A model generated the notes under the pieces. That model had not been told where the DNA came from. It worked only from the letters and a program-made list of their open reading frames with translations, and made no database searches. A program made the position numbers and the translations under genes. Positions 4,483-44,539 of a stretch of 64,000 nucleotides of DNA are shown in pieces. The stretch's first letter is position 1. Each line of letters opens with the position of its first letter. Source of the DNA: Methylococcaceae bacterium. GTDB taxonomy: Bacteria > Patescibacteriota > Microgenomatia > UBA1400 > PJMF01. The stretch is taken from positions 8,759-72,758 of the forward strand of contig JBILVZ010000002.1 in NCBI GenBank assembly GCA_044370175.1. Reading direction: 5' to 3'.

Positions 4483-5934
4483 CTACTGAATAGAAACTAT
4501 CTCGCCATCGGTCATACCTCTGGTGATAATGACTTTCTCATCATCTGCCAACCCAGAATTAACAACAACGTATCCACCTGACACAGAACCCAGTTCTACC
4601 TGACGTACTCGGGCAACTGTCTTGCCATCTGCTACTACAGCCAGATATACGAACGCTGCTTCTTGTGTTTGGTAGACTGCATCGAGGGGGATATATCTAT
4701 CAACTGTACTAGCTACTGGCGCACCGAGAGGAACCTGGACTGCCACTTGCTCATTGTTTGAAAAATATCGCTCATATTCTCCAGGGATGCTATACAAGAT
4801 GGTGTGCAGTGTTCCATCGGTGGGTTCAGCAGAAATGTAGCGAGGTGCCAGTGAAACTGTAGTACCATCAACACTAAAAGTACTCAGCTCAGCCCGAGAA
4901 ACGCGTGCGGCTACTTCACTCGGCACACTGACAACTGCGGTGATCTCCCGAGCATCAGCTCTAATTACCGCAAGTGGAGTGCCAGGATTTACCAATTGGC
5001 CAACTTTTACAAATACTCGCTCTACCACACCTGAACAAGGTGTAGCAGGATAAAACAAAGATTCAGAGATCCACTGAAGTTTCACCTGTAAATTGGCTAG
5101 ATCTTTTGACAAATCTAGAGACTTTTCTTGTAGTGTTAGCTGCTTGAGTGTGATCTCTCGCTGTAGCTGAGTAAGCTGTGTGGGTTCCTGTTCATTCGAG
5201 CTACTATACTCTGCACTGCGCAATCCTGACTTAAGGTTATTCAAGCCAGCTACAAGCTGTGCTTTTCCTTGTTTAACTGCAAGAATAGCGCTATCGGTAG
5301 CGCCATTGACATTAGTAGCTTCTAAGTCTTTCAGCTGTAGATTGACGGAGTTTAAAATTTCTTCATTGAGCTTAATAAGATCGCGTGTTTCTTGCAGTGA
5401 ATCTCTGGTAATACTTCGTAAATCACCTTCTCTTGCCTCTGTCTTCTCTGCCACTTCTCTTTGTTGTCTTATGGTATCTTTTTGTAACTGATAGTTCTCG
5501 TTGGCAGACTGGGCAGTACGCTCTGCAATTCTCCGGGTCACAGCTGCTGCATTTGCCCCTTGGTAGTTGGTTGAAAGGATAACAAGTTTTGCACCTCGCT
5601 TGATTGAGGCACCTTCCGTAACTGGAACCTTCTGTACAATGCCACTCGTTTGAGCAAAGATGGTAATAACTCCACTTTTTTCGATTTTAGCAGTTACTCC
5701 AATGGTTGGAGACTGACCTTGAGCATAAATAGTCACTGCTGTTGGGGCTGCCTGCTCTGGTTCAAGTGAAGTGACCGGGGTACGCAGATAGTTACCTACT
5801 ATAATACAGACTAGTAATACAAAAAGTAGTCCGATAAAAAGAGTAAATGGGTGAGCATCGATCACTGCCAGTAGTTTGTTTTTTGTTCTCACAAAAAATG
5901 CTTTCAGTTTTCCCATATCTGGGGACCTTTCCAA
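4483..5934 (-). CDS. Efflux pump periplasmic adaptor (membrane fusion protein, HlyD family)
   Basis: N-terminal single TM (FTLFIGLLFVLLVCIIVG), a long coiled-coil segment (residues ~130-290) and beta-rich lipoyl/barrel regions. Its stop is 23 nt upstream of the RND gene start. Confidence 0.75.
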   Translation of the reverse strand: MERSPDMGKLKAFFVRTKNKLLAVIDAHPFTLFIGLLFVLLVCIIVGNYLRTPVTSLEPEQAAPTAVTIYAQGQSPTIGVTAKIEKSGVITIFAQTSGIVQKVPVTEGASIKRGAKLVILSTNYQGANAAAVTRRIAERTAQSANENYQLQKDTIRQQREVAEKTEAREGDLRSITRDSLQETRDLIKLNEEILNSVNLQLKDLEATNVNGATDSAILAVKQGKAQLVAGLNNLKSGLRSAEYSSSNEQEPTQLTQLQREITLKQLTLQEKSLDLSKDLANLQVKLQWISESLFYPATPCSGVVERVFVKVGQLVNPGTPLAVIRADAREITAVVSVPSEVAARVSRAELSTFSVDGTTVSLAPRYISAEPTDGTLHTILYSIPGEYERYFSNNEQVAVQVPLGAPVASTVDRYIPLDAVYQTQEAAFVYLAVVADGKTVARVRQVELGSVSGGYVVVNSGLADDEKVIITRGMTDGEIVSIQ

Positions 5935-6038
5935 TTTTAGAGTATCTTCGGAGACTGTAGATTATAACAGATCAATTATGATCAATAGATATCAAAGTGT
6001 GGAGGAGTAAAGTGTTTGTAAAATTTTCTCAGGACTTT

Positions 6039-40893: not shown

Positions 40894-41523
40894 ATGAAAA
40901 AGTTATTTCTCTCTTCGTATGCCGCTATCACTCTAGAACTAGTAAAGCCGTTACTACCCAAACCAGCTGATCAACTTAAGGCAGCATTTATTCCAACAGC
41001 AGGTGATCAGTATGAAGATGCTGGTCGTTTTCAACACCCAGATAAAGAGGCACTCGAGAAGTTAGGTATGGAGGTTACTGAAATTGATTTGAAAACAACG
41101 CAAGGAAAAGAATTAGCAAGAGTTATGCAACAGATGGATGTTGTATTAGTTGCAGGTGGTAATACCTTTTACTTGCTGGAGTGGGTGCGAAAATCAGGAT
41201 TTGATGTGATTATTAAAAAACGCATCTCTGAAGGTCTCGTATATATTGGTTCTAGTGCTGGTTCGATTCTATGCTGTCCTACAATTGAAGGAGCCAAACG
41301 CTTTGATCCGCCAGAAGCAGCACCTGAGCTTACAGACTATACAGGTCTTAATCTGGTTAATTTTGCCATCATTCCACATACTCATAAGGAAAAATACAAA
41401 CAAAGAATTGAAGAAACTACCGCTGAACTGCAAGAAAGTGGCCTAGAGGTTGTATACCTCACTGATGATCAGGCTGTGGTTGTAGAGGGAGATGAGTGGG
41501 AAGTCGTGGATATCAAAATCTAA
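40894..41523 (+). CDS. Peptidase E (S51 dipeptidase E)-like
   Basis: VAGGNTFYLL contains the GGNTF motif of S51 peptidases. The His/Glu region is downstream. Start chosen at ATG 40894 (MKKLFLSSY); the ORF opens at GTG 40858. Confidence 0.6.
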   Translation: MKKLFLSSYAAITLELVKPLLPKPADQLKAAFIPTAGDQYEDAGRFQHPDKEALEKLGMEVTEIDLKTTQGKELARVMQQMDVVLVAGGNTFYLLEWVRKSGFDVIIKKRISEGLVYIGSSAGSILCCPTIEGAKRFDPPEAAPELTDYTGLNLVNFAIIPHTHKEKYKQRIEETTAELQESGLEVVYLTDDQAVVVEGDEWEVVDIKI

Positions 41524-41650: not shown

Positions 41651-41677
41651 GAGACCGTTCCAAAACGGTCACTTTTT
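41651..41677 (+). terminator. Hairpin GACCGTT-CCAAA-AACGGTC followed by T6, a candidate pepE terminator that coincides with the IS left inverted repeat
   Basis: 7-bp stem, 5-nt loop, then ACTTTTTT, about 130 nt after the pepE stop. Confidence 0.4.
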
Positions 41678-41745
41678 TGAGGTAAGACTGATTGAATGAT
41701 AGTACTAAATTGCATATTTGACTAGGTGAAAGATATAGTAGTGGT

Positions 41746-42773
41746 ATGAAAAAAATCCTCAGTGTCCGATTTGTGAAAGCAGTAGCTGGAAAAAAGGACG
41801 TCGTCGAGGAAAAATAAAATATCAATGCAGAACGTGTAGAAAATGGTTCCAGATCAACAGGTCTCGTGAGAGCGTACCTGCAAAAGCATTGCTGGTTCAG
41901 CACTTAAGTGGGATGTCATTTCGAACGTTGTCAGATATGCATGGCTGTGGCGTAGCCACAGCCTACAGAAGAGTTCAAAAGGGGTTGCAAGAATTACCAA
42001 CCTGCATTGATGTCACCAGATGGTACTGTCAAAAATTCCAGGGTATCCTGCTGGTGGATGGCAAGTATGTACGTGTCAAACGATATGATCGCAAAATACC
42101 TGTGTTGTATGGCGTTGACTACAGTACACATGACATACCGCACTACAGACTCTCGAGAGCTGAGAATTATTTAACCTGCAAGAAATTCTTTGAGTCCTTG
42201 AAGTTAACAAACTATGTTGTGCATGCAGTCGTGTGTGATGACAATCTCAATATTTATCAGGCAGCACAACACACATTTCCTGAGGTCGTTATCCAGCTCT
42301 GTCACCTGCATTTCTTGCGGAATATGAGAGCACTGCTTGATCTTGAAAACAGCTCAACACACCAGCTATTTTTTCAGCTACTGACCAAACTATTAATTGA
42401 AAAAAGATCAAAACAAGACTTTGAACAGCGAGCTTCCCGATTGGTTTCTCACTTTGCAACTGATCAGGTCTGTACCGGAATATTGCTTGAACTCGCCAAG
42501 AAACAATCACTCCTACAAGGCTATTTGCACTACAAAGGTATTCCGACAACCACAAACCTCATCGAGTCATTTAACTCACATCTTGAAGCAAGAATACGTC
42601 CTCTTAAAGGTTTTGAATCTTTCAAACATGCAGAACTTTGGCTCAATGCATACTTCCTACGGAGGAGAACGAGGAAATTCACTGATTGTTCAGGAAAATT
42701 TAAAAAATTAAACGGAAAAACTTCTCTCGAAATTGTCAAAAAACCACGGATTGATCTACCAACCTTTTTTTGA
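41746..42773 (+). CDS. IS1-family-like DDE transposase with N-terminal C2C2 zinc ribbon; frameshifted at an A7 run
   Basis: The C-terminal TNLIESFNSHLEARIRPLKGFESFKHAELWLNAYFLRRR parallels IS1 InsB [36 protein letters not shown]. Candidate catalytic D/D residues sit in LLVDGKYV and VVCDDNLNIYQ. The in-frame upstream segment NPQCPICESSSWKKGRRRGKIKYQCRTCRKWF is an InsA-like zinc finger with no start codon of its own. ATG 41746 is followed by A7 and reaches that frame only by a -1 shift. The longest ATG ORF in the DDE frame is 41889..42773. Confidence 0.6.
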
Positions 42774-42880
42774 AACCAAGGTGACCCTTTTGGAACGGTC
42801 TCGGCGCTCTTCATCTTATTTGTACTATAATATAGACATTTGAAATTTGCTACACACAATTAATAAGCACAAGCCCCAAG

Positions 42881-44539
42881 TTATTCTTCACTACGTGTCA
42901 AACTAGCCGACACCCAATAACTCCAAGTTCCGGCAATAATAAAGAAAAGACCGCCAAATAGCAGGGCAAGAGTTGTGCCGATGGCACCAGAGGCAGGTAA
43001 ACCACTTGCCGTAGAAACTTTAGAACTGCGTGTAGACGTAGCTGCTCCTGAGGCAGTTTTAGTTCCACTCTTGGTACTTGTTGCTGAGCTACTGGCTTGA
43101 GCAGAAGAAGTTGCGCCACCAATTGGGTATGGATTAGTTGATCCAAACGGTGTGGCTGAAGCCTTTGGTGTGGCTGAAGCCTTTGGTGTGGCAGTAGGTG
43201 TAGCTGTAGCACGGGCGGTGCCTGTTGTCGTAGTTGTGGTGTTTGCTTGGGCCAATAAATTCTCCGTGCGAGGTTGTACGATAAAGGTCTCAGTTCTTGT
43301 TTTTGGCTGTCCTGTGGCTGGATCGTCGTAGGTGTAGGTAATAGTATGTTCTCCAGGCTCAAGACTGGCCTTGAGGTCTTCTAAATCTATTTCAAATTGA
43401 CCAGTGCTATCGGTTGTAACTTCATGACTAATTTGATTTTCTGAATGAACTTCAATTTTTACTTTGACGTTAGGAGCAGCTTTACCAGTAATAGTAGGCT
43501 GTTGTGTAGTAACAACAGGTGGTTCATCAGTCTTAAAATCTTTTTCCAAATTTAGCATCACAACTTCAGGTTGCGCACTGTCACTTGCCGAACCACTTGC
43601 TGAGGCATCTAGTGCCGAGCGTAGTCCACCCAAAGCAGTACTTTTGGTAGCACTGTCACTAGCAGTAGTACTTGCACTCATCATGGCATCTTGACTAGTT
43701 GTGCTAATTTCTTGTGTTTGAGTGGTGATTTGTGCACTTTGACTAGCTACTATGGGCGTGGGTGGTATTGCAATACCCTTACCAAAGGTGATGTTCGGTA
43801 CTCCTGGCTTGGCTTCTGCAACAGAGATTGTGGCTTGTGCTGTTTGTGTGATCTCAACTCCTTGGATAACTAAGGCAAGTTGGGTATCTTCTGTGATAGT
43901 AGCAAATGAACTACCATCAGGAGTACGTGCATTGGAAAGCGCGACCGCCCAACTACCTGCGTTGGTGACGAGTGATGACATATCTCCAGCACCTTCGGTT
44001 TTAAGATACACCACCGCACCTTCAGCTGGTGCTCCTGTCTGGGTTGTAACAGTTCCAAAAACGGTCCGTGCGGAAGTGGGAATACCTTTTTTAGCGGTGA
44101 CAATCTTGAATGGAGCTCCATTATTATCAAACAGTGCCCCCTCTGCAGTGCCAATGAAGTAATAGTAGGTAGTCCCGGGTTGGAGGCCTTTGACAGTGAT
44201 GTGATGTAGCTTAAACTTGTCAGAAGTTGCTGAAAGTTGAATCCGATCGTCAGCAACCTGAAGATTTACTGCATCTTCTTCCGTGCCATATTTTACAAAT
44301 GAAGTTGTCTCAATTTCCGTCATGAATGAGACGGTAAACGTACTATCAGTGACGTTTGTAAGGCGAACATTTTTGGGAGTTGTTTCAGCAGTTGCCCGAG
44401 GTGCAAATACCCCCGCACCTTGCCCGATGAATACTACCCCAATAACCAGGGCGACGACTAAAAATCCAAGACCAAGCAGGGTGGGAATGCGTCTTTGCCA
44501 GAGTGGTTTAATTGGTTGTGTTGGTGTAACTGCAGGCAT
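42881..44539 (-). CDS. Cell-surface protein with N-terminal TM anchor, Ig/FN3-like beta domains, Ser/Thr/Ala-rich repeats and a C-terminal sortase-type sorting signal (LPASG + TM + charged tail)
   Basis: N-terminal LLGLGFLVVALVIGVVFIG. The C-terminus ...SGLPASGAIGTTLALLFGGLFFIIAGTWSYWVSASLTRSEE resembles an LPxTG-class sorting signal. Low-complexity ATPKASATPKASATP segment. Confidence 0.6.
   Translation of the reverse strand: MPAVTPTQPIKPLWQRRIPTLLGLGFLVVALVIGVVFIGQGAGVFAPRATAETTPKNVRLTNVTDSTFTVSFMTEIETTSFVKYGTEEDAVNLQVADDRIQLSATSDKFKLHHITVKGLQPGTTYYYFIGTAEGALFDNNGAPFKIVTAKKGIPTSARTVFGTVTTQTGAPAEGAVVYLKTEGAGDMSSLVTNAGSWAVALSNARTPDGSSFATITEDTQLALVIQGVEITQTAQATISVAEAKPGVPNITFGKGIAIPPTPIVASQSAQITTQTQEISTTSQDAMMSASTTASDSATKSTALGGLRSALDASASGSASDSAQPEVVMLNLEKDFKTDEPPVVTTQQPTITGKAAPNVKVKIEVHSENQISHEVTTDSTGQFEIDLEDLKASLEPGEHTITYTYDDPATGQPKTRTETFIVQPRTENLLAQANTTTTTTGTARATATPTATPKASATPKASATPFGSTNPYPIGGATSSAQASSSATSTKSGTKTASGAATSTRSSKVSTASGLPASGAIGTTLALLFGGLFFIIAGTWSYWVSASLTRSEE
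43152..43192. repeat. In-frame 18-bp tandem repeat GTGGCTGAAGCCTTTGGT x ~2.3, encoding (ATPKAS)n in the surface protein
   Basis: Direct tandem copies visible at 43152-43169 and 43170-43187, with a partial third copy. Confidence 0.5.

Follow-up and report, generated by a model that had tools for sequence, protein, structure and literature searches.

Positions 41651 to 42802 on the forward strand of the window, i.e., of the entire 64,000-nucleotide (nt) stretch of contig JBILVZ010000002.1 that was analyzed here, are occupied by an autonomous insertion sequence (IS) of the IS256/Mutator superfamily, which belongs to a short subgroup with a zinc-ribbon N terminus. Its single gene codes for a transposase whose start codon is followed directly by a run of seven A residues (A7), and the remainder of the gene, including the zinc-binding finger, lies in the -1 frame relative to that start codon. 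Recoding of some kind is very probably used to produce the full-length protein. The parts of the element, including its left and right terminal inverted repeats (IRL and IRR, respectively) and the open reading frames (ORFs) between them, are as follows.

41651 to 42802, + strand: the complete insertion sequence of 1,152 bp, with the inverted repeats as its ends and with the similarity to its relatives limited to the same bases
41651 to 41675, + strand: IRL, the first 22 nt of which are nearly invariant across relatives
41653 to 41678, + strand: a hairpin with a 7-bp stem, GACCGTT-CCAA-AACGGTC, inside IRL, followed by T6; it resembles an intrinsic terminator and faces incoming transcription
41710 to 41715, + strand: a weak, putative -35-like hexamer, TTGCAT, 18 nt upstream of the -10 box (TTGGTG in other relatives)
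41718 to 41730, + strand: the near-palindrome TTGACTAGGTGAA between the putative -35 and -10 elements, present as the perfect palindrome TTGACTAGGTCAA in many relatives
41734 to 41739, + strand: the -10 box TATAGT, which ends 6 nt before the ATG
41746 to 41748, + strand: the start codon ATG, aligned with the start of in-frame relatives and corresponding to the invariant columns A96, T97, and G98 of the DNA alignment
41746 to 41817, + strand: the short zero-frame ORF (23 codons and the TAA), whose peptide would result in the absence of slippage
41749 to 41755, + strand: the slippery A7 run and predicted recoding site, exactly seven A's directly after the ATG
41754 to 42773, + strand: the transposase frame, -1 relative to the ATG, from Asn4 to the TGA at 42771 to 42773; the fused product would have 342 amino acids
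41763 to 41837, + strand: the CxxC...CxxC zinc ribbon (Cys7, Cys10, Cys28, and Cys31 of the fused protein)
42057 to 42566, + strand: the catalytic core, with Asp105 at 42057 to 42059, Asp165 at 42237 to 42239, the CxxH motif Cys186-His189 at 42300 to 42311, and Glu274 at 42564 to 42566
42778 to 42802, - strand: IRR, which differs from IRL at one position of the terminal 22 nt

Read from the ATG at 41746, the DNA encodes MKKILSVRFVKAVAGKKDVVEEK and reaches a stop at 41815 to 41817. The finger and the transposase share a different frame, which is open from just past the TAG at 41739 to 41741 to the TGA at 42771 to 42773, spans 339 codons, and encodes NPQCPICESSSWKKGRRRGKIKYQCRTCRKWF..., with the cysteine pairs CPIC...CRTC, and then the complete transposase. 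This frame contains no ATG, GTG, or TTG before the TTG at 41889, which is itself downstream of the finger. A single added A, equivalent to a -1 shift, would give MKKNPQCPICESS..., and many relatives have a single 342-amino-acid ORF. The preliminary description of this locus, made from the letters of the sequence, had recognized both features, namely, an InsA-like finger in the transposase frame without a start codon of its own and a sole ATG, at 41746, that joins this frame by a -1 slip on A7 or by the presence of an eighth A; both hold. The finger, the helix-turn-helix, and the DDE (Asp-Asp-Glu) core form one continuous frame, and no IS1-type arrangement of two overlapping ORFs fused in the middle of the protein was seen. 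Two other routes into the finger frame were considered and rejected. Noncanonical in-frame initiation would require a near-cognate start, and none is found between the TAG at 41739 and Cys7, where the sequence reads TGG TAT GAA AAA AAT CCT CAG; reinitiation after the short ORF would omit the first CxxC pair, which is under selection.

The length of the run is the same in independently obtained sequences. Two independent JGI assemblies (L076 and L077; L numbers denote related loci and lineages) contain the same locus with 100% identity, including A7, and a strain variant (L080) that is 98.65% identical also has A7. The same run is present in a contig from a GTDB genome (L014) that matches at 98% in the DNA alignment and has a flank unlike that of the window, as well as in all 7 ENA contigs of the L021 type, which come from different samples. 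The window, L014, and the group of L021 to L027 (85%) read ATGAAAAAAA(T/C)CC at this site, one base less than the ATGAAAAACAATCC of the in-frame sequences in the DNA alignment. The elements of the window, L021, and L028, which share 85 to 86% DNA identity, are each exactly 1,152 bp long, have no indels relative to each other, and all contain A7. Gene callers annotate the window copy as a 278-amino-acid protein, and its closest database proteins, from dozens of contigs, are all N-terminally shortened calls of 278 to 289 amino acids. Among 5.8 billion proteins, there was neither an in-frame full-length protein with the window-type finger nor an A8 version of that finger; the best full-length match (P0001; P numbers denote database proteins) is 84% identical but carries another finger module.

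The case for recoding rests mainly on the fact that the segment that has no start codon evolves as protein even though it is unreachable without a change of frame. Nei-Gojobori estimates of the ratio of nonsynonymous to synonymous substitution rates (dN/dS) were computed from the lineages of the window, L021, and L028 over the 45 codons that separate the run from the first start codon in frame. In the finger frame, these start-less codons show a dN/dS of 0.12 to 0.16 at a dS of 0.8 to 1.2, compared to 0.7 to 2.7 in the two other frames of the same codons and about 0.05 in the remaining part of the transposase gene. The 23-codon peptide of the ATG frame, with a dN/dS of 0.7 to 2.3, is not conserved as a protein. 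At the level of single residues, Cys7, Cys28, and Cys31 of the zinc ribbon are invariant in a 33-member alignment, and Cys10 is conserved in at least 90% of its members.

Elements with such runs have also moved. Two 100% identical A7 elements (L021 and L023) are found between different flanks, and perfect 9-bp target duplications surround the elements of L021, L045 (an A6 lineage with the opposite shift direction), and L072, with 8 of 9 positions matching in L028. One Levybacteria genome contains 4 copies with 99.7 to 99.9% identity, all of them out of frame after GTG and A8, and the same A8 is found in L044, an Illumina-derived relative (93%). Run length is constant within every lineage that was examined. 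The preliminary description had left three options for the run, i.e., programmed slippage, a sequencing error, and an inactivating mutation. Programmed slippage is now favored; sequencing error is excluded, given that independent assemblies carry A7, and simple inactivation is unlikely because of the purifying selection and the recent transposition of A7 copies.

To survey the family, loci were collected by DNA-level scans, independently of gene calls, and about 35 sequences were placed on a midpoint-rooted neighbor-joining tree; the lineages are related to each other, so that the counts given here are not independent. In 24 lineages, whose proteins have 46 to 98% amino acid identity to that of the window, an ATG or GTG, sometimes ATG-ATT, is followed by A6 to A8 and the finger is out of frame. 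These are 24 of the 26 lineages with at least 6 A's after ATG or GTG; the only two in-frame lineages with such runs are L073, with a pure A8, and L031, with ATG-C-A7. Other in-frame relatives have interrupted runs, such as AAAAACAAT, AAAAATAAT, and AAGAAAAAT. Most of the out-of-frame lineages have A7, some have A8, and some have A6, and every ORF in them that could be read to its end comprises 335 to 341 codons counted from the first Cys, except for the copy in L015 (229 codons). A shift by +1 nt is required in 19 of the 24 lineages and a shift by -1 or +2 nt in the other 5 (L006, L044, L010, L045, and L053); the direction differs even between sister lineages, with L041 (A7) needing +1 nt and L045 (A6) needing -1 nt. 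Every deep branch of the tree carries the out-of-frame state; in-frame lineages occur only in a single derived part. The length of the zero-frame peptide varies across relatives from 4 to 50 codons. Since most Patescibacteria relatives share this arrangement, it looks more like a built-in throttle than like damage.

The same pattern leaves its mark on protein databases. Many database proteins begin with M..YEK.. or M..DEK.., residues that arise when the xATGAAAAA motif is translated in the finger frame after a chance start further upstream. Clustered at 50% identity, the family comprises 96 clusters with E values of up to 1e-30 and 261 with E values of up to 1e-10, many of which are represented by shortened calls. 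Two loci depart from the common layout and may be decayed or use another route: L046 has an out-of-frame GTG without an A-run, and L054, 6 nt downstream of a TAATAT box, has ATT in the place of the start codon and then A7. Three proteins (P0125, P0128, and P0130) cluster at 90% identity or more with P0005 of the A7 clade but carry an in-frame module, MKKNITCPHC..., of the L072 type (ATGAAGAAAAAT); the body of P0125 is nearly identical to that of the window protein. These sequences suggest an exchange of 5' modules between in-frame elements and out-of-frame ones.

The region upstream of the start codon is conserved as well. A TAnnnT hexamer is located exactly 6 nt upstream of the ATG or GTG in 31 of 35 lineages, with a variable sequence (TATAGT, TATGAT, TATACT, TAAACT, TAAAAT, and others), and no Shine-Dalgarno-like sequence precedes the ATG of the element. 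The fixed position of this conserved box implies that the transcript starts at or next to A41746, which would make the mRNA leaderless. The near-palindrome at 41718 to 41730, conserved in the DNA alignment, in the upstream regions of the 35 lineages, and in almost all family members, may be an operator or a subterminal binding site for the transposase. In the window, a TAnnnT hexamer is found 5 to 8 nt before the first ATG in 10 of the 37 long ORFs, versus 5.2% of all ATG triplets, and Shine-Dalgarno-like words are at background, preceding 5 of the 37 long ORFs, versus 10.5%. Leaderless mRNAs are apparently widespread in this host; an example of such a -10-like box is seen upstream of the pepE start at 40894. 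Judging from a single marker protein, LepA, whose named relatives are nearly all from Pacebacteria, Woesebacteria, Microgenomates, or Patescibacteria, the host appears to be of the Patescibacteria type.

Assignment of the transposase to a family rests on several comparisons. The only model that scores above its curated threshold is the Pfam domain Transposase_mut (Pfam ID PF00872), with 32.6 bits against a gathering cutoff of 21 over residues 101 to 285, and precomputed PF00872 matches are available for nearly all homologs. The NCBIfam models rank in the order IS256 (E value of 2e-16), IS256 variant Zn-binding type (6.5e-15), IS1249 (7e-10), and IS1 (5e-7), and in all 33 aligned diverse members, the first three are ahead of IS1. 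None of the equivalog cutoffs is reached: IS256 scores 59.8 of 150 bits, IS256_Zn_var scores 55.2 of 150, and IS1249 scores 38.6 of 300. Because scores of 55 to 60 bits are far below the 150-bit cutoffs, the element is best placed in a distant, unnamed subgroup of the IS256 superfamily, outside the curated NCBIfam groups. A search of PDB with the family profile retrieved a single relevant solved protein, the “Mutator family transposase” 6xg8 (E value of 0.0016); a search of PDB with the single protein sequence returned nothing useful. An AlphaFold (AF2) model of the transposase, with a predicted local distance difference test (pLDDT) score of 82.3, was used for a fold search, in which the top five PDB matches were chains of ISCth4, with E values of 7e-11 to 1e-7 and template modeling (TM) scores of 0.49 to 0.56 (for the best match, an E value of 7e-11 and TM scores of 0.52 to 0.56); the next match had an E value of 5.5e-6 and a TM score of 0.2. 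The fold is that of IS256-family transposases, in which an RNase H-like core carries a large alpha-helical insertion ahead of the catalytic Glu. D105, D165, E274, and the C186-x2-H189 (CxxH) motif are invariant in 33 sequences, and a DDE triad with a long spacer between D and E, combined with C/DxxH after the second Asp, is the signature of the IS256/Mutator transposases.

All of these searches, by Pfam, NCBIfam, PDB profile, and fold, point to IS256/Mutator and away from the IS1-like assignment made in the preliminary description, which had compared the finger with that of InsA and the C terminus with InsB. The likeness of the finger stands at the level of the motif; that of the catalytic half does not, since this half is IS256-like. 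The NF050000 model of the IS1/IS1595 Zn domain gives a weak match to the window protein (19.6 bits against a cutoff of 28) and is matched at E values of up to 1e-3 by 23 of the 33 members, about as often as the model of the IS256 4-Cys domain. Membership in the IS1 family was considered and rejected: the NCBIfam IS1 model NF033558 scores 29.9 bits against a cutoff of 100, in a match limited to residues 7 to 173, and the shift is placed before the finger, not between DNA-binding and catalytic ORFs.

The arrangement of these signals suggests a scheme for the expression of the transposase. The element's own promoter, with TATAGT 6 nt before the ATG, would give rise to a leaderless mRNA starting with AUG-A7. 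As templated, this mRNA would produce only the 23-residue throwaway peptide, and the 342-amino-acid transposase, with its zinc ribbon, helix-turn-helix, and DDE core, would come from a minority of one-base-shift events. The most likely event of this kind would be the addition of an untemplated A by RNA polymerase, which would turn A7 into A8 and let the message be read as AUG AAA AAA AAU CCU, that is, MKKNP...; as an alternative, the ribosome could slip by -1 on G_AAA_AAA_A. No OrfA-type regulator would be produced, and the site would act as a pure throttle on the level of transposase. The hairpin of IRL, with its T-run, plausibly serves as a barrier to read-through and would block transcription arriving from neighboring genes, and transcripts initiated outside of the element would remain untranslated under this proposal, because translation is assumed to depend on the 5'-terminal AUG.

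Both mechanisms yield an identical protein, MKKNPQC..., and programmed recoding by transcriptional slippage, to which we give an even chance, is only slightly favored over ribosomal frameshifting. Opposite shift directions among orthologs fit the criterion for transcriptional realignment proposed by Antonov et al. 2013 (PMC3711429), i.e., a nonconserved direction of the shift, and polymerase slippage would cover every lineage by a single mechanism. Frameshifting by the ribosome, with the same element and the same throttle, would consist of a -1 shift on G_AAA_AAA or a slip of tRNA-Lys in the P site on A_AAA, at codons 2 to 3, with MKKN... as the product; it is a serious contender, even if we consider it somewhat less probable. 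The phase of the run is fixed directly after ATG, GTG, or ATG-ATT, which creates G_AAA_AAA or, in the ATG-ATT subgroup, T_AAA_AAA; both belong to the A-rich heptamers that have been found conserved at frameshift sites (PMC3711429). On these heptamers, the A-site tRNA can re-pair fully and the P-site tRNA at 2 of 3 positions, and a slip of the P-site tRNA alone, on A_AAA, could also occur. With 6 to 8 A's, the runs have the usual length of ribosomal sites and are short for slippage by the polymerase. Further, in the window, L021, and L028, a stem (UCCUC...GAGGA) begins right after the run, with one U-A to C-G covariation. This stem, at 41756 to 41810 in the window, appears in L021 as CCCUCG...CGAGGG, with U-A replaced by C-G at two synonymous positions, and L028 retains part of it. 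The stem, for which z-scores range from -3.0 to 0, is lacking in the remainder of the family, and no downstream structure is shared across 33 lineages, for which the z-scores are mostly near 0. The five lineages that require the opposite shift also speak against a ribosomal site, as does the probably leaderless mRNA, which would leave no room for an upstream Shine-Dalgarno-like stimulator. The most specific version of transcriptional slippage is that the slip takes place at positions +4 to +10 of a leaderless mRNA during promoter escape, so that reiterative transcription changes the reading frame, with the site working as a pure copy-number throttle, probably ancestral in the IS256-like subgroup of Patescibacteria; we put forward this version only tentatively. 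Several points weigh against transcriptional slippage at this site or against the throttle itself. The transcription start, the slipping molecule, and the efficiency of slippage are all deduced from sequence; a consensus promoter scan did not call the promoter of the element, and its -35 hexamer is weak. A7, like the A6 of some lineages, is shorter than the runs of 8 to 9 or more that are usual for efficient polymerase slippage and fits the ribosome at least as well. In-frame relatives whose repeat ends are almost identical are found in the same metagenome series and recombine with A7 elements, so that mobilization in trans is possible. Finally, the copy in the window has no target-site duplication and contains one mismatch in the terminal 22 nt of IRR.

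The remaining explanations do not involve recoding. A homopolymer tract just after the start codon is the classic layout of phase-variable genes, so the run could be a switch at the DNA level, with A7 copies moving only once replication slippage has brought back the frame, or such copies could be nonautonomous and move with transposase supplied in trans by an in-frame relative. The pure in-frame A8 of L073 would suit such a switch, and the in-frame elements of the L072 type, with their near-identical repeat ends, their presence in the same sample series, and their 5' modules swapped with A7-type bodies, would suit a source of transposase in trans. We nevertheless consider these possibilities unlikely. 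No polymorphism in run length was seen within lineages, with A7 in 7 of 7 L021-type contigs and in all contigs of the window strain that reach the run and A8 in the 4 Levybacteria copies and L044; all four Levybacteria copies recovered, in a genome search that was not exhaustive, are out of frame. Identical A7 copies at different sites would each have needed a reversion after moving, the 5.8 billion proteins include no in-frame parent for any of the three finger types with A7, and strong purifying selection on the A7-linked finger would be hard to sustain in a passenger. Even less probable is that the window copy is a dead transposase gene with a one-base deletion, an explanation that the data have largely refuted for its lineage. 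This reading can draw on the missing target duplication, the mismatch in IRR, and the annotation as a 278-amino-acid protein only, but the 339-codon frame is fully open, the same state is found in lineages diverged by 14% (dN/dS of 0.05 to 0.16) and in about 20 deeper lineages, and the missing duplication is explained by rearrangement or by assembly across identical copies. As for an error in sequencing or assembly that turned a true A8 into A7, homopolymers are indeed error prone in some sequencing technologies, yet A7 is found in L076, L077, L080, and L014 and in seven ENA contigs of the L021 lineage from different samples, and the protein database holds no A8 version of this finger type, which reduces the probability of such an error to almost nothing.

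The element can be compared with several known systems. With the IS256 family, including ISCth4 (PDB 6xg8/6xgx), the variant Zn-binding type, and IS1249, the element shares the PF00872 match, the fold, the CxxH motif, a single transposase gene, the DDE triad, in which about 109 residues separate the second D from E, inverted repeats that start with G and have a length of about 25 bp, and, in its relatives, 9-bp target duplications; repeats of about 20 to 30 bp and duplications of 8 to 9 bp are usual for this superfamily. It differs from that family in its shorter size (1,152 bp and 342 amino acids), in its IS1/IS1595-like 4-Cys N terminus, and, above all, in its need for a frame shift. The IS1 elements, in which InsA and InsAB' are produced by -1 ribosomal frameshifting on A6C, have in common with the element the CxxC...CxxC finger, the helix-turn-helix, the DDE core, a glutamate motif of the TNxIE type, an A-run that needs a -1 shift, and target duplications of 8 to 9 bp, and 33 of 33 family members weakly match the NCBIfam IS1 model over the N-terminal half. 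The differences are that the IS256 E value is nine orders of magnitude better than that of IS1 and that, in IS1, the shift occurs between the DNA-binding and catalytic ORFs and InsA is a regulator, whereas here it precedes the finger (codons 2 to 4) and the unshifted peptide is nonconserved and 4 to 50 residues long. Phase-variable (contingency) genes resemble the element in having a tract directly 3' of the ATG and in being off as templated; unlike them, it shows no polymorphism of tract length in lineages or copies, and out-of-frame copies spread.

Slippage on A-runs is itself well established for transposases of the IS1, IS3, IS5, and IS630 families, where it fuses a DNA-binding ORF to a catalytic ORF and two proteins are made. 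Known cases of transcriptional realignment involve A8 to A9 runs in elements of the IS630, IS5, and IS3 families (Baranov et al. 2005, Antonov et al. 2013, IS1447); the run length is usually 8 to 9 or more, with a threshold that depends on the organism. Features shared with these systems are a conserved A-run, a full-length protein made by crossing frames, opposite directions in orthologs, and a presumed scarcity of transposase, whereas the present runs, most of them A7, are shorter, the shift site occupies codons 2 to 4 instead of the overlap between OrfA and OrfB, and there is no two-protein system. In addition, the run would occupy positions +4 to +10 of a leaderless transcript, that is, the initially transcribed region, for which no matching case was found in the literature. 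A review of recoding from 2016 lists frame shifts for IS1, IS3, IS5, and IS630 and not for IS256, and IS elements with +1 ribosomal frameshifting were not known at that time. A literature search, with ISfinder and subscription journals outside its reach, retrieved no description of frameshifting or slippage in IS256 elements or of slippage in a leaderless transposase transcript. What appears to be new is the IS256-like family, the position of the run at codons 2 to 4, before any domain, and a transcript that is probably leaderless.

Recognition of the recoding site restores a 342-amino-acid transposase with a DNA-binding finger in a family most of whose members are annotated as N-terminally shortened or “hypothetical” proteins, and the number of mobile elements counted as active in the small genomes of the candidate phyla radiation would change. 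If recoding is confirmed, IS256-type elements would join the recoding families. The design would be minimal, consisting of a start codon and a slippery run alone, and slippage would set only the dose, unlike in IS1 and IS3 with their OrfA/OrfAB logic. Should the slip take place during promoter escape, transcriptional slippage would have a new use and a new location, and no recoding system would have been described before in the IS256 family. With a slip site within its first ten nucleotides, a leaderless transcript would also offer a short and clean system to separate polymerase slippage from early ribosomal frameshifting.

The limits of the element are well supported. In more than 25 related elements, the similarity begins and ends at the bases corresponding to 41651 and 42802, and several metagenome contigs consist of the element alone. 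The two arms are 25 nt long and 92% complementary, in agreement with the near-perfect inverted repeats, enclosing a unit of about 1.15 kb with one transposase gene, that had been noted previously. Within the window, the terminal 22-mer matches only at the two ends of the element (none would be expected from shuffled sequences). A generic family of palindromic terminators, a possibility raised together with the question of whether the repeats recur without a transposase, was rejected, as in every paired case there is a transposase gene between the ends. The hairpin and T-run of IRL were detected by a terminator scan, with a centroid energy of -9.5 kcal/mol for the fold, and the preliminary description had regarded them as the pepE terminator, into or next to which the element had inserted. 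They are, however, nearly invariant at the left end in 12 of 12 aligned copies with unrelated flanks, and for this reason they are better regarded as part of the element and not of pepE. At the other end, a T7 run at 42765 to 42771 overlaps the stop codon of the transposase (TTT TTT TGA), 29 nt from the end of the element. One database protein (P0084) has a different C terminus that extends beyond the usual end. Solo ends or nested insertions may account for two copies of the right-end repeat 229 bp apart in L056 (positions 2084 to 2334) and for the right flank of L005/L033, which starts with a partial end sequence, ACGGTCTC.

The window copy is embedded without a target duplication, as ...GCAATACT / element / GGCGCTCT..., and the alternative right flank in L076 shows no target duplication either. 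In L076, a 207-kb JGI contig, the same left junction and the element are followed by a different right flank, GCTTGGCTCCCCGACTAGGACTCGAACC... (seen at L076 positions 5909 to 5950), which resembles the end of a tRNA gene. This difference at 42802/42803 can be attributed to an IS-mediated rearrangement or to an assembly join across identical copies. The flanks of L080 match those of the window, and 42 of the 43 mismatches over 3,186 bp fall inside the element (window positions 41926 to 42483), a pattern that points to mosaicism or to gene conversion among variants of the IS. Several contigs end at the edge of the element. There are several similar copies per genome that recombine or confuse assembly, which explains the missing duplication and has no bearing on the question of recoding. 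The 64-kb window contains no tRNA genes and no Rfam family above threshold. The neighboring gene on the reverse strand (42881 to 44539) codes for a 552-amino-acid protein that looks like a cell surface protein, with a low-complexity region rich in Thr, Ser, and Ala and a hydrophobic anchor at the C terminus.

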